Source: an uncultured Chloroflexia bacterium
GTDB lineage: Bacteria; Chloroflexota; Limnocylindria; Limnocylindrales; CSP1-4
DNA length: 64,000 nt
Direction: 5' to 3'
NCBI GenBank assembly: GCA_963718285.1
Contig: CAVQYU010000006.1
Coordinates: 94,059-158,058 of the forward strand
Shown in pieces: positions 44,145 to 63,622 of the stretch. The stretch's first letter is position 1. The number at the start of each line of letters is the position of its first letter. The translations under genes and the position numbers were made by a program. The notes under the pieces are model-generated. The model saw nothing but the letters and a program-made list of their open reading frames with translations, was not told where the DNA came from and made no database searches.

Positions 44145-46031
44145 GTGAACTCAGTACGGCTGACCGTGGGCCAGGCGGTCGTCCGGTTCTGCGCCGCCCA
44201 GGACGTCGAACGGGATGGTCGTGAGCACCGGTTCATCGCCGGCTTCTGGGGCATCTTCGGTCACGGTAACGTGGCCGGCCTGGGCCAGGCCCTCGAGGAG
44301 CTCGGTGACGAGCTGCGGATGCCGCTCTACCGGCCCCAGAACGAGCAGGCCCAGGTCCACATCGCGGCCGCCTTCGCCAAGCACCACAACCGGCTCCAGG
44401 CCTACGCCTGCACCTCATCGGTCGGCCCGGGCGCCCTGAACATGGTCACCGGGGCCGCCGGCGCAACGGTCAATCGAATCCCGGTCCTGCTCTTCCCCAG
44501 CGACTACTTCGCCAATCGAGCGCCCGATCCGGTCCTCCAGCAGATCGAGCATCCGGTCGAGCGCGACGTCAGCGTCAACGACGCGTTCCGGCCGGTGTCG
44601 CGTTTCTTCGACCGGATCTCCCGCCCCGAGCAGCTCCTGGCTTCCCTGCCTGCCGCCTTCCGGGTCCTGACCGACCCGGTCGAGACCGGTGCCGTGACCG
44701 TATCCCTGCCCGAGGACGTCCAGGCCGAGGCCTACGATTGGCCCCTGAGCTTCTTCGAGCGGCGGACCTGGCGGGTTCGTCGCCCCGTGCCCCAGGCCGC
44801 CGACCTGGCCGACGCGGTCCGCCTGATCAGCCAGGCCAAGGCGCCCCTGCTCGTGACCGGCGGCGGCACGATCTATGCCGAGGCCACGCCCGAGCTCGAT
44901 GCCTTCGCCAGCCAGTTCGGGATCCCGGTCGTGGAGACCCAGGCCGGCAAGGGCGCCCTGCCCTGGAGCCACCCGCTGAACGTGGGTCCCGGCGGCACGA
45001 ACGGCAGCCTGGCCGCGAACCGCCTGTCGCGCGAGGCCGACCTGGTCATCTGTGTCGGCACCCGGATGGGCGACTTCGTGACCGCCTCGCAGTCGGCCTT
45101 CCAGAATCCGGAGGTCGCCTTCGTCGGCCTGAACATCGCCCCGTTCGATGCCCACAAGCTGCGGGCCACGGCCATCACCGCGGACGCCCGGGAAGGGCTC
45201 CGGGCCCTCCGGGCCGAGCTCGCCGCCGCCGGCTATGCAGGGTCATCCGCGGCGTATCGCGAGCGCGCCGCCGGCCTCAAGCAGGAGTGGGACGGGATCG
45301 TCAGCGGCCTGCGCGCCGTCAATGGCGAGCCGGGCGACCTGGGCCAGGCAGAGGTGATCGGCCTGGTCAATGACGCCGTTGGTGGCCGGGCCACGGTCAT
45401 CTGTGCGGCGGGCAGCCTGCCCGGCGACCTGTTGCGCCTGTGGCGGGTCGACGACCCGAAGGCCTATCACGTCGAGTACGGCTTCTCGTGCATGGGCTAC
45501 GAGATCGCGGCCGGCCTGGGCGTGCGCCTGGCCGAGCCCGACCGGGACGTCGTGGTCATGGTCGGCGACGGGTCCTACCTGATGATGAACTCGGAGATCG
45601 TGACTGCCGTGGCCGAGGGCCTCAAGCTCACGATCGTGGTCCTCGACAACCACGGCTTCCAGTGCATCCTGGCCCTCCAGCGGATGGTCGGGGTGCCCGA
45701 CTTTGCCAACGAGCTGCGCTTCCGCGACCCGGCCACCAACCGGCTGACCGGGCCCTACGTACCGATCGACTTCCGCCAGCATGCCGAGGCGATGGGCGCC
45801 CTGGGCCTCCTGGCCCGGACGCCGGACGAGCTTCGGGCGGCCCTCGACCAGGCCCGTGCCAGCGACCGGATCACGGTCATCCTCGTGCCGACCGAGCCCG
45901 AGAAGCGGGTCACCGGCTTCGAGACGTGGTGGGACGTGCCGGTGGCCGAGGTGAGCGGACAGGCCGGCGTGCGCACGGCCCGGGCCGCCTACGAAGTCGC
46001 CCTCGGCCGGCAACGCACCGACCTTCGCTGA
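44145..46031 (+). CDS. iolD: 3D-(3,5/4)-trihydroxycyclohexane-1,2-dione acylhydrolase (IolD-type ThDP enzyme)
   Basis: The ORF is intact. VRLTVGQAVVRF..FIAGFWGIFGHGNVAGLGQALEE is typical of the IolD N-terminus. The ThDP motif is GDGSYLMMNSEIVTA...VLDNHGF. The GTG 44145 start sits behind GGGAGGG; the tracked ORF begins at 44094. Confidence 0.85.
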   Translation: MNSVRLTVGQAVVRFCAAQDVERDGREHRFIAGFWGIFGHGNVAGLGQALEELGDELRMPLYRPQNEQAQVHIAAAFAKHHNRLQAYACTSSVGPGALNMVTGAAGATVNRIPVLLFPSDYFANRAPDPVLQQIEHPVERDVSVNDAFRPVSRFFDRISRPEQLLASLPAAFRVLTDPVETGAVTVSLPEDVQAEAYDWPLSFFERRTWRVRRPVPQAADLADAVRLISQAKAPLLVTGGGTIYAEATPELDAFASQFGIPVVETQAGKGALPWSHPLNVGPGGTNGSLAANRLSREADLVICVGTRMGDFVTASQSAFQNPEVAFVGLNIAPFDAHKLRATAITADAREGLRALRAELAAAGYAGSSAAYRERAAGLKQEWDGIVSGLRAVNGEPGDLGQAEVIGLVNDAVGGRATVICAAGSLPGDLLRLWRVDDPKAYHVEYGFSCMGYEIAAGLGVRLAEPDRDVVVMVGDGSYLMMNSEIVTAVAEGLKLTIVVLDNHGFQCILALQRMVGVPDFANELRFRDPATNRLTGPYVPIDFRQHAEAMGALGLLARTPDELRAALDQARASDRITVILVPTEPEKRVTGFETWWDVPVAEVSGQAGVRTARAAYEVALGRQRTDLR

Positions 46032-46068
46032 CCAGCAAAGCCAACTACAGACACACGAGGAGAGATCG

Positions 46069-62268: not shown

Positions 62269-63622
62269 CCAGCTCGGCCCGATGATGGCGCAGGAATGAC
62301 CGGGTCGCCTCGATCACGGCATCGACGTCGCCCAGCGTGTGGGCACCGGTCAGGTAGCCCCGGATGACGTAGTGCGGGTGGATGTAGATCCCCCGCTCCA
62401 GGAGCCAGTTGCGGTAGGCCCTCTGGAGGGGATGGTTCTTGTCCATCGCAAAGCGGGCGAAATCGCGGAACCGGCGGATCGGCTCGTCGGTGAAGTAGAT
62501 CGCCCACACGCCGGCGCTCTGCTTGACCTGGACGGCCACGCCGAGCTCGTCGATGGCCGCCTGGATGCCCTGAGTCAGGTGATTGCCGAGCCGGTCCAGG
62601 TGGCCATGGATCTCGCCCTCCAGGACAATCCGGGTCGACTCCAGGGCCGCTGCGACGTTGAGGGTGTGGCCCGCGAACGTGCCCGCGAAGAGCACGTCAC
62701 CCTTCGGCCCGAGGTGGTCCATGACCTCGGCCCGGCCGGCCAGGGCGGAGATCGGGAAGCCGTTGCCGAGCGCCTTGCCGAGCGTGGTCAGGTCGGGCAT
62801 CACCCCGAACCGGGCCTGTGCCCCGCCCGGGCCATGGCGGAAGCCGGTGATCACCTCGTCGAAGATCAGGACGGTGCCCGCGGCGGTACAGGCCGCCCGG
62901 AGGGCCTCGAGGAAGCCGGGCTCGGGCAGCACCGCCCCGGCGTTGTGGAAGACCGGCTCGACGATCACGGCGGCAATCGTGTCTCCCTCCGCCCTCAGGA
63001 CCGCCTCGACCGCTGCTGCGTCGTTGTACTCGCGGACGAGGACCAGATCACGGACCATCGCCGGCATCCCGGCCGAGGCCGGGATCGGGACGGGCTGGCC
63101 ATGGCCGTCGTCGTCCGTGGCGAAGTGGTGGCTCCAGGCGACGTAGTCATGCCAGCCGTGGTAGTTGCCTTCGAACTTGAGGATCCGCTCGCGGCCGGTG
63201 TAGGCCCGGGCCAGCCGGATCGCGTGGTAGGTCGCCTCGCTGCCGGAGCAGGCGAAGACCACCCGGTCGGCCGACGGGATCATGGCCACCACCCGCTCGG
63301 CCAGCTCGACCTCGAGCGGGTTGGCCGCCGAGAATGAGATGCCGTGCTCGTCCATCGCCCCTCGGACGGCGGCCCGGACCCGCGGGTCGTTGTGGCCGAG
63401 CAGGATCGCTCCAAACGAGGCGTGGAAGTCGATCAGCTCGTTGCCATCGACGTCCCACGTCCGTGACCCCTGGGCCCGGGTCATGAACAGCGGATAGGGA
63501 CTTGCGCTGCGGCCCTCGCCCTGGACGCCGCCGGGTGAGACGGCGTTGGCCCGGGCGAACAGGCGGGCGGACTCCGCCGTCGGGATCGGCCAGGCGCTAG
63601 AGTCGAGGTCCGGGCCGCTCAC
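62258..63622 (-). CDS. Class III PLP aminotransferase (glutamate-1-semialdehyde aminomutase-like)
   Basis: Blocks are ACSGSEATYHAIRLAR, LIFDEVITGFR and the PLP lysine block TTLGKALGNGFP. The GTG 63622 start overlaps the upstream stop (GTGA). The tracked ORF extends to 63961 in the same frame. Confidence 0.85.
   Translation of the reverse strand: MSGPDLDSSAWPIPTAESARLFARANAVSPGGVQGEGRSASPYPLFMTRAQGSRTWDVDGNELIDFHASFGAILLGHNDPRVRAAVRGAMDEHGISFSAANPLEVELAERVVAMIPSADRVVFACSGSEATYHAIRLARAYTGRERILKFEGNYHGWHDYVAWSHHFATDDDGHGQPVPIPASAGMPAMVRDLVLVREYNDAAAVEAVLRAEGDTIAAVIVEPVFHNAGAVLPEPGFLEALRAACTAAGTVLIFDEVITGFRHGPGGAQARFGVMPDLTTLGKALGNGFPISALAGRAEVMDHLGPKGDVLFAGTFAGHTLNVAAALESTRIVLEGEIHGHLDRLGNHLTQGIQAAIDELGVAVQVKQSAGVWAIYFTDEPIRRFRDFARFAMDKNHPLQRAYRNWLLERGIYIHPHYVIRGYLTGAHTLGDVDAVIEATRSFLRHHRAELVRP

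Follow-up and report, generated by a model that had tools for sequence, protein, structure and literature searches.

The closest described systems are the canonical inositol operon of Bacillus subtilis and Salmonella (iolG-E-D-B-C-J-A) and the rhizopine moc/mos genes of Sinorhizobium meliloti, in which an inosamine is tied to the iol pathway. In the latter system MosB, a DegT-family aminotransferase that converts inosose to inosamine and back, acts with IolG in a biosynthetic setting to interconvert myo-inositol, scyllo-inosose and scyllo-inosamine (PMC6668481). The literature searched describes no aminocyclitol pathway built on DegT and IolD, in the Limnocylindria or elsewhere, and no breakdown of free aminocyclitols for which the enzyme that takes off the amine is defined. 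To our knowledge, the step that removes the amine from rhizopines has never been pinned down. Here we describe a stretch of 64,000 nucleotides (the window; G+C content ~71%) from an uncultured soil bacterium of the Limnocylindrales, Chloroflexota (assembly GCA_963718285.1, contig CAVQYU010000006.1, positions 94,059 to 158,058 of the forward strand), in which the ring-cleavage gene iolD is directly followed by a gene for a DegT-family aminotransferase. The locus is a variant of inositol catabolism that has not been described before, and we propose, with a probability of roughly 45%, that the region from ~38.4 to at least 63.6 kb is a single LacI-repressed regulon for the uptake and catabolism of an amine-bearing cyclitol of the inosamine type.

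Genes were picked by their third-position GC bias and named with Pfam and NCBIfam profiles. The iolD gene (44145..46031, + strand) encodes 3D-(3,5/4)-trihydroxycyclohexane-1,2-dione hydrolase, which cleaves the ring; its product scores 889.6 bits against the TIGR04377 cut-off of 715 and is 74-95% identical to its counterparts in relatives. The DegT gene starts 37 bp beyond the iolD stop (46069..47307, +) and encodes a KdnA-like, pyridoxal phosphate-dependent aminotransferase of the DegT/DnrJ/EryC1 family (PF01041, 262 bits). Further along the same strand lie the genes for a LacI-family repressor (49228..50302; Pfam and NCBIfam) and an IolG-like inositol dehydrogenase of the Gfo/Idh/MocA family (50317..51360; 330 bits, just below the TIGR04380 cut-off of 355), followed by an ATP-binding cassette (ABC) importer. 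The importer genes encode an ATPase of the PotA subfamily (54093..55184, +; 364 bits, above the TIGR01187 cut-off of 355.6), a lipoprotein solute-binding protein (SBP; 55209..56393, +) and two permeases (56418..58176, +), one PotB-like (56418-57335) and one PotC-like (57328-58176). Between iolG and potA, on the opposite strand, is the gene for an 865-aa metallohydrolase of the PHP-like CehA/McbA type with N-terminal beta-sandwich domains (51391..53988, -; NF038032, 131 bits).

These genes are joined by a common promoter design. A half-palindromic LacI-type operator motif, TRCAAWCGGTTGC, occurs in three exact copies in the window as against 0.09 expected from shuffled sequence, and the three intergenic regions concerned are alike in having a -35 box TTGACG, a spacer of 17-18 nt, a -10 box TAnnnT and the operator a few bases further on. 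The first copy (TGCAATCGGTTGC, 44117..44129, +) follows closely on a TTGACG-18 nt-TACCGT promoter, with 16 bp left to the start codon of iolD; the second (TGCAATCGGTTGC, 49177..49189, +) lies behind a TTGACG-17 nt-TACGGT promoter before lacI, and the third (TACAAACGGTTGC, 54034..54046, +) behind a TTGACG-17 nt-TAGCAT promoter before potA. The promoters thus equipped serve three operons (IolD-DegT, lacI-iolG and importer), while the first and third sites are also divergent from a paralogue of the 865-aa hydrolase gene and from that gene itself. In 38 related loci a relaxed form of the motif precedes DegT, which there comes first after the operator, by 25-60 bp; at the same distance it precedes IolD in 24 loci and PotA in 12, and it occupies as well the divergent spacers of the 865-aa hydrolase gene in 34 loci and of an IolE-like gene in 25. 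The importer, IolD, DegT and the 865-aa hydrolase are thus predicted to answer to one LacI-type repressor, which is the strongest new evidence that the island is one unit. An earlier note on this DNA had called the island catabolic and a single unit, and the operator shared by these three promoters bears it out.

A fourth operator-like copy with one mismatch (GGCAATCGGTTGC, 36913-36925) falls within a gene for a major facilitator superfamily (MFS) transporter (36576-38225) and is probably a chance match. Compared with an intact orthologue, the lacI gene itself contains one extra nucleotide near 49456, which parts the helix-turn-helix from the ligand-binding domain; if this frameshift is real, the regulon would be constitutive.

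The ATPase exceeds the cut-off of the polyamine subfamily, as would be expected if a polyamine importer and an inositol locus merely stood side by side. This explanation is already contradicted and we regard it as highly improbable: the operator common to potA, iolD and lacI excludes a chance adjacency, and in two of the architectures found in relatives (types C and D, below) the importer travels, in rearranged order, with the genes for DegT, a Zn-dependent dehydrogenase, the IolE-like protein and a transaldolase-like protein. Moreover, the SBP, a distant PotD relative of the SBP_bac_6 type, reaches only 49 bits with the PotD model, whose cut-off is 582.

The linkage of DegT to inositol genes extends well beyond the window. 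Metagenome-assembled genomes (MAGs) of 'Candidatus Limnocylindrales' are the source of all the best DegT homologues (79-97% identity), and a scan of species-representative genomes gave 79 loci, nearly all of them from the Limnocylindria, an abundant uncultured class of soil and freshwater. All loci were searched by tblastn with the proteins of the window and of two relatives; the arrangement is conserved across ~79 genomes, and the grouping is well beyond chance. Related loci of 15 kb or more numbered 59; an IolD-like gene was located within 10 kb of DegT in 45 of them, and at least one of IolD, IolG, IolE-like and IolB in 54. The IolD partners in three architectures scored 830-890 bits, all above the IolD cut-off. 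From this conservation, DegT is judged to be an integral member of IolD-containing operons in the Limnocylindria.

In the type A architecture (DegT at least 77% identical), a TIM-barrel gene and an 870-aa hydrolase gene (-) are followed by IolD-DegT-PfkB-KduI-DeoC-EamA-TIM-LacI, then by an optional split transketolase, IolG, an optional second KduI, the 865-aa hydrolase (-), PotA and the SBP. By NCBIfam, the KduI protein is IolB (267 bits, cut-off 205), the PfkB protein is IolC-like (249.5 bits, cut-off 300) and the DeoC protein is a class I aldolase of the LacD type. Most relatives, in which iolC, iolB and the aldolase are all present, thus have a canonical iol operon with DegT added. The split transketolase-like pair, with its N- and C-terminal halves encoded separately between lacI and iolG, is found in many type A relatives (L002/L003 17106-18997, with equivalents in L009, L011, L014, L020, L023, L059, L061, L073 and L074) and is absent from the window. 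In the other types DegT comes first behind the operator, with varied sets of partners drawn from IolD (830-855 bits, above its cut-off), IolE-like, Gfo/Idh/MocA, luciferase-like (LLM) and Zn-dependent dehydrogenase genes, the PotABCD-like importer, IolB, the transaldolase-like protein, an HpcH aldolase, an SMP-30 lactonase and a HemL-like aminotransferase. Two DegT paralogues, ~65% and 73% identical to that of the window, lie ~15 kb apart in one super-cluster (L046/L050; CAWBMK010000001.1, ~1.727-1.764 Mb), and L020 also has at least two. Every paralogue of such a pair is equipped with a separate operator and a separate set of Gfo/Idh/MocA, IolD and importer genes, which suggests several related substrates.

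Since IolG and a DegT-type enzyme suffice to make scyllo-inosamine (PMC6668481), and distant plasmid-borne DegT homologues (39-40% identity) occur in biosynthetic clusters, the genes might instead turn inositol into an inosamine destined for a compatible solute or a natural product. We consider this the least probable of the explanations. DegT is co-transcribed with IolD and, in relatives, with a catabolic kinase, isomerase and aldolase; the locus encodes an ABC system for uptake and is under a LacI repressor, with an operator at each promoter; and the cluster contains no cyclitol synthase, glycosyltransferase or set of tailoring enzymes. Plasmid homologues from Roseibium, Embleya and Rhizobium (34-40% identity) were also considered as functional anchors for DegT and proved uninformative, their contexts being heptose, nonribosomal peptide synthetase or unannotated genes.

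The window departs from most of its relatives in the lower pathway. No homologues of IolB, IolC or the 2-deoxy-5-keto-gluconate phosphate (DKGP) aldolase were found by tblastn anywhere in the 64 kb; there was no aldehyde dehydrogenase among the 20 larger upstream open reading frames (ORFs) scanned, nor did the ORFs scanned in the window, or the relatives' loci with Pfam gene calls (L001-L003), include one of the Aldedh family (IolA). In relatives with 88-91% identical DegT, a block of ~2.9 kb with iolC, iolB and the aldolase gene lies directly between DegT and EamA. At this place the window has a spacer of 77 bp (47308..47384) that holds the palindrome GCCGGCGATCGCGCCGGC at 47345-47362; the junction was compared between window 47308-47384, L004 8328-8408 and L008 11253-14100. 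The closest genome, an independent MAG with 97% identical DegT (JBBSFD010000033.1), has the same DegT-EamA junction, at 80 bp, so that the loss of the block is real and shared. An assembly artefact, which was considered as the cause of the missing genes, is ruled out by the same junction. On these comparisons, the lower steps of the canonical pathway are absent through a recent deletion specific to this lineage, and not as an ancestral state.

To the right of the island, JBBSFD010000033.1 contains only a hypothetical gene, a GSDH-family dehydrogenase gene, redox genes and a dCTP deaminase gene, and the lower genes are therefore not to be sought just outside. As the earlier note had it, then, no iolB, iolC, iolJ or iolA adjoins the island, either in the window or in its closest relative. 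Synonymous substitution frequencies (dS) for 16 island genes compared between the window and this MAG were 0.22-0.34, and the ratios of nonsynonymous to synonymous substitutions (dN/dS) were 0.03-0.20 for all 16, with 0.035 for IolG, a sign of purifying selection, under which the island has remained functional since the loss.

A divergent class I aldolase of the transaldolase/fructose-6-phosphate aldolase (FSA) family, here called TAL-like, is encoded at 61192..62268 (+). It has the Schiff-base lysine (Lys136), a glutamine (Gln107) at the transaldolase glutamate position (equivalent to TalB Glu96) that corresponds to Gln59 of FSA, and a methionine (Met199) where transaldolases have phenylalanine and FSA tyrosine; Gln107 and Met199 are invariant in 10 homologues. 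The protein does not qualify as a transaldolase by the catalytic lysine and glutamate together or by model score (best model 103 bits, cut-off 367). The IolB equivalog adjoins the TAL-like gene in types C and D and shares one operon with it in type E; the two are neighbours in L037, L041, L043, L048, L050 and L056. An FSA-like split of unphosphorylated 2-deoxy-5-keto-gluconate into dihydroxyacetone and malonate semialdehyde would be chemically reasonable, and the pairing of IolB with an FSA-like enzyme in relatives hints at a kinase-free lower branch, although the window itself is without IolB. The suggestion of the earlier note that the lower pathway is non-canonical thus gains some support from this adjacency and from the FSA-like residues, but such a pathway is not the ancestral state of the locus, and the window lacks IolB.

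The identity of the amine-handling step depends on DegT. Its Schiff-base lysine (Lys189, in YSFNEYK) is kept in 73 of 73 homologues, and its presence and invariance make DegT a transaminase and not a His-type dehydratase; a PMP-dependent dehydratase of the ColD/E1 type that would replace IolE was considered and is ruled out by the same residue. We placed the protein by ranking bit scores against the PDB and NCBIfam models and not by a tree. The nearest characterised relative is KdnA (PDB 5k8b; 258 bits, ~45% identity over 373 residues), followed by perosamine synthetase and ArnB at ~160 bits, while the solved 2-deoxy-scyllo-inosose and scyllo-inosose aminotransferases score 122-148 bits. None of the equivalog models for nucleotide-sugar enzymes is passed (LegC family 185 bits, cut-off 420; ArnB 169, cut-off 631; PseC 166, cut-off 423; DesI 158, cut-off 650). 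By this ranking DegT groups with neither the inosose nor the nucleotide-sugar aminotransferases, so that the earlier note was right to keep it apart from the latter and not in likening it to the former. KdnA is a transaminase that forms 8-amino-3,8-dideoxy-D-manno-octulosonate (Kdo8N), and its substrate is a free sugar acid, not a nucleotide-linked sugar. A GCPFDC insertion at residues 340-345, conserved in the family, is absent from KdnA. Within the GKGCPFDC stretch (residues 338-355), C341 and C345 are present in ~90% of the 73 homologues, often with a third cysteine at 347 and nearby histidines, and the insertion may be a metal or redox site.

An alternative account of these data is that the locus is an ordinary regulon for myo-, scyllo- or chiro-inositol, in which DegT is an accessory without a part in deaminating the growth substrate and might instead transaminate malonate semialdehyde or 5-deoxy-glucuronate, or scavenge nitrogen. 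The relatives' DegT operon, with IolG, IolD, IolB, the IolC-like kinase and the aldolase, is what would be expected from it. An aldehyde is the substrate of KdnA, to which DegT is closest among characterised enzymes, and IolA, which would dispose of malonate semialdehyde, was not seen in the ORFs scanned in the window and in L001-L003. Against this, transamination of a pathway aldehyde would give a dead-end amino acid and neither carbon nor energy, canonical inositol systems need no aminotransferase, and the first place behind the operator, which DegT takes in 38 loci, is that expected of an entry step. The importer, too, is of the polyamine/opine/phosphonate type, with an SBP that retains the amine-anchoring carboxylates. 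On balance we consider an ordinary inositol regulon unlikely, though well ahead of chance adjacency or biosynthesis.

The SBP has a Tat-type signal and a lipobox. Of the 12 contact residues of Escherichia coli PotD, five are kept (W34, E36 as aspartate, E171, W255 and D257), while the aromatic box is lost, Y37, Y85, W229 and Y293 being replaced by His, Leu, Asn and Arg. An aspartate is gained (D123; S83 of PotD is replaced by Asp). This pattern is conserved in 15 homologues with 49-93% identity. An aliphatic polyamine would suit it less well than would a polar, hydroxylated scaffold bearing a protonated amine, a reading that is a hint only, since the SBP aligns weakly with PotD (40 bits).

The importer genes are followed by further enzyme genes on the same strand. 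The first encodes an F420-dependent LLM-class oxidoreductase (~58190..59189, with the ORF called from 58281; TIGR03560, 205 bits). Next to it is a Zn-dependent dehydrogenase of the medium-chain dehydrogenase/reductase (MDR) superfamily (59233..60234; dN/dS 0.033), for which the best model is IolM, scyllo-inosose 3-dehydrogenase (NF041097; 218 bits, cut-off 450). The IolE-like TIM-barrel dehydratase (60262..61191; TIGR04379, 148 bits, cut-off 290) has IolE (3cny, 89 bits) as its best PDB match. Downstream of DegT, the gene for a TIM barrel of the xylose isomerase-like type ('TIM285'; 48290..49147, +; PF01261), with a weak match to hydroxypyruvate isomerase, codes for a candidate isomerase or dehydratase.

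In the route that we infer for an inosamine-type substrate, where IolD alone has an assured step, the PotD-like lipoprotein and the ABC transporter would import the protonated amine, and the KdnA-like DegT would pass the amino group to a 2-oxo acid, leaving an inosose; the direction and ring position of this transamination are part of the proposal. The Gfo/Idh/MocA, Zn-MDR and F420-LLM oxidoreductases, together with the TIM-barrel enzymes, could then funnel stereoisomers or deoxy forms to 3D-(3,5/4)-trihydroxycyclohexane-1,2-dione, by dehydration on the IolE-like route or, for a 2-deoxy-inosose, by direct oxidation. Ring opening by IolD would give 5-deoxy-glucuronate. Most relatives would complete the route with IolB, IolC and the LacD-type aldolase, and others with IolB and the FSA-like aldolase, cleaving 2-deoxy-5-keto-gluconate without phosphorylation. 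The lineage of the window would draw the lower steps from elsewhere in the genome or use the TAL/FSA-like enzyme with an isomerase. As a sub-hypothesis, the biosynthesis of 2-deoxystreptamine could run in reverse, with DegT, Zn-MDR and DegT again leading to 2-deoxy-scyllo-inosose, which is one oxidation from the substrate of IolD.

Several observations weigh against an amine-bearing cyclitol as the substrate. DegT is no closer to the inosose aminotransferases than to those acting on nucleotide sugars, and KdnA acts on a terminal aldehyde and not on a ring ketone. Most relatives have the complete canonical iol set, and plain inositols are therefore certainly possible substrates of the DegT operon. 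Without IolB, IolC and the aldolase, and with IolA unseen in the ORFs scanned, the pathway is not closable from the window alone. The low score of the SBP against PotD counts here as well. Finally, the 865-aa hydrolase, the LLM oxidoreductase, the EamA transporter and the HemL-like aminotransferase have no role that is explained by this substrate.

The 865-aa hydrolase and its 865-870-aa paralogue (41449-44060) flank the island, both on the minus strand. About 523 members of the family are detectable; of the best 120, those with a name come almost without exception from MAGs of Limnocylindrales or other Chloroflexota. The 865-aa protein has no signal peptide, no Pfam domain at E values up to 10 and no sequence match in the PDB. 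In an AlphaFold2 model (pLDDT 75.6), N-terminal beta-sandwich domains precede a C-terminal catalytic domain, and Foldseek matched the latter partly to the PHP-like Endonuclease Q, with otherwise generic beta-sandwich hits. The protein could be a phosphoesterase or a carbamate or amide hydrolase that frees a cyclitol from a conjugate.

This leads to the possibility, overlapping with the inosamine-type proposal, that the substrate is a larger cyclitol-amine conjugate such as an aminoglycoside, a pseudo-oligosaccharide, a glucosaminyl-inositol from the breakdown of mycothiol, glycosylphosphatidylinositol (GPI) or glycosyl inositol phosphorylceramide (GIPC), or a phosphorylated or carbamoylated aminocyclitol. 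The ring would be freed by the 865-aa hydrolase, by 'oxidative glycoside cleavage' through Gfo/Idh/MocA and TIM-barrel enzymes, or by both, and two aminotransferases would remove two amino groups. The two lineage-specific metallohydrolase paralogues that flank the island and share its operator regions are consistent with such a substrate, as is the presence of two aminotransferase families, DegT and HemL-like class III. Zn-MDR and DegT mirror 2-deoxystreptamine biosynthesis in reverse; models of levoglucosan or glycoside 3-dehydrogenases give the best score for some associated Gfo/Idh/MocA proteins, and several genomes have at least two DegT paralogues in adjacent clusters (L046/L050, L020). 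However, no recognisable glycoside hydrolase, deacetylase or amidinohydrolase was found, and the 865-aa hydrolase has neither a signal peptide nor an informative structural neighbour. PotD-type SBPs take small ligands, and aminoglycosides are scarce in soil relative to the spread of the regulon. We regard a conjugate as a doubtful substrate, on a par with plain inositols.

Extending the inosamine-type proposal to the whole class is similarly speculative. The Limnocylindria would then share a LacI-controlled aminocyclitol regulon, with a new clade of KdnA-like transaminases at the entry, a new family of 865-aa PHP-like hydrolases, IolD and a kinase-independent lower branch, not described before, in which IolB passes 2-deoxy-5-keto-gluconate to the FSA-like aldolase. 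Its substrates could be inosamines, possibly also 2-deoxystreptamine or streptamine from natural products of the aminoglycoside type.

The remaining genes of the island are less readily placed. An EamA/DMT-family membrane transporter (47385..48257, +; PF00892) follows DegT at a position kept in relatives. At the right end, a HemL/GSA-aminomutase-like class III aminotransferase gene (62258..63622, -) is convergent with the TAL-like gene; it keeps this place in L086/L087, and a homologue occurs within the type C clusters. Upstream of it on its strand is a partial ORF (window 63619-64000, -) with 47% identity to a 277-aa protein without a Pfam domain, which accompanies the HemL-like aminotransferase in L086/L087 and adjoins a TIM barrel in L001. 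The island reaches left to ~38.4 kb and includes there a frameshift-split cytochrome P450 gene at the edge of the conserved region (38375..39516, -; PF00067; three pieces by tblastn with the P450 of L002), two TIM barrels of the xylose isomerase-like type and the frameshifted paralogue of the 865-aa hydrolase. The first TIM-barrel gene (39668..40571, +) is frameshifted and is a homologue of that for a 310-aa protein in L001, while the second ('TIM281'; 40589..41431, -) is intact, 82-95% identical in relatives (dN/dS 0.09) and has weak matches of the IolO/epimerase type. The hydrolase paralogue (41449..44060, -) is broken into ~5 frames and is divergent from iolD; in relatives, 'TIM281' and the upstream 870-aa paralogue also point the same way. 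The larger ORFs scanned to the left of the island are housekeeping genes and the like, encoding tRNA synthetases, a penicillin-binding protein, MFS pumps and a peptide-binding protein. The gene families named in the earlier note were recovered by the Pfam and NCBIfam scans at about the positions it had assigned to them, with the correction that no TIM barrel supports the label 'IolH-like'; the EamA transporter and the 865-aa hydrolase were missing from its list.

The quality of the sequence varies along the window. The pheT gene (9501-11821) is split into two overlapping frames, and thrS (15276-16679) and cysS (32120-33283) are fragments; such split or truncated essential genes indicate that the window holds indel errors or pseudogenes. 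Indels are dense in the left flank (38375-44060), in the P450 gene, one TIM barrel and the 870-aa paralogue, with two 1-nt indels in the P450 relative to L004. The LLM gene has one 1-nt indel near 58230 relative to L087, which obscures its true start. The genes for IolD, DegT, EamA, IolG, Zn-MDR, the IolE-like protein and the TAL-like protein are free of indels.

If an amine-bearing cyclitol is the substrate, the island would for the first time supply the enzymes of aminocyclitol turnover in soil, and with them a clue to the recycling of aminoglycoside cores. Inosamine transaminases and a repressor/operator pair for biosensors could also be drawn from it, rhizopine-type signalling circuits being in demand, and it would define a metabolic niche for a very abundant uncultured Chloroflexota class. 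If that proposal fails, the locus is a decorated inositol operon. Whatever the substrate, the pairing of IolB with an FSA-like enzyme suggests a phosphorylation-free end to the inositol pathway, and the 865-aa hydrolases are a sizeable protein family without known function.

Compared with the canonical iol operon, the island is alike in its equivalog-level IolD, its IolG-like and IolE-like proteins (both below their model cut-offs) and its control by a repressor, and close relatives add the IolB equivalog, the IolC-like kinase and an aldolase in one operon. It differs in having DegT directly after iolD, a PotABCD-type importer in place of the MFS transporter IolT or a sugar-type ABC system, and a LacI-type repressor in place of IolR (RpiR/DeoR). 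The aldolase of the relatives is of the LacD/DeoC type and not the class II IolJ, no iolA was found at the island, and iolB, iolC and the aldolase gene have been deleted in the window. The F420-LLM, Zn-MDR, TAL/FSA-like and 865-aa PHP-like proteins are additions to the canonical set.

The rhizopine system offers a conceptual match. A MocA-like Gfo/Idh/MocA protein and a MocC-like TIM barrel are also found in the island, with a similarity at the level of Pfam families only. The island is without a MocDEF oxygenase, a MocR-type regulator and a ribose-type MocB SBP (no Rieske or ferredoxin genes were detected in it with Pfam and NCBIfam), and its host belongs to the Chloroflexota whereas that of the rhizopine genes is a rhizobium. 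KdnA of Shewanella oneidensis has the catalytic lysine motif SF-x-x-x-K-T-I-T-C-G in common with DegT. It differs in its partner, the iron-containing alcohol dehydrogenase KdnB, and in its context of 3-deoxy-D-manno-octulosonate (Kdo) and lipopolysaccharide synthesis, for which neither an iron-containing alcohol dehydrogenase nor lipopolysaccharide genes were recognised in the island by Pfam and NCBIfam; DegT is located in a catabolic iol operon.

In the biosynthesis of 2-deoxystreptamine and streptamine, enzymes of the DegT family (BtrR/BtrS, StsC) and Zn-MDR enzymes of the NeoA type likewise act on cyclitol ketones and amines, and run in reverse they would take a diaminocyclitol to a deoxy-inosose, one oxidation from the substrate of IolD. 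The similarity is at the family level only (122-148 bits), and the island, with its catabolic context, lacks a 2-deoxy-scyllo-inosose synthase and a glycosyltransferase. The TAL-like protein shares with the FSA/transaldolase family its fold, the Schiff-base lysine and TSNP motifs and a glutamine at the position of FSA Gln59. It scores only 65 bits against the solved transaldolases, and the unphosphorylated substrate proposed for it is hypothetical. As in the case of the sulfofructose transaldolase of the sulfoquinovose SFT pathway, a TAL-family enzyme appears to have been taken over for the last part of a specialised sugar route. Finally, the importer has the four-component layout and the PotA-subfamily ATPase of the PotABCD spermidine/putrescine system (TC 3.A.1.11), and differs from it in the replaced aromatic box and extra aspartate of its SBP and in its co-regulation with cyclitol enzymes.

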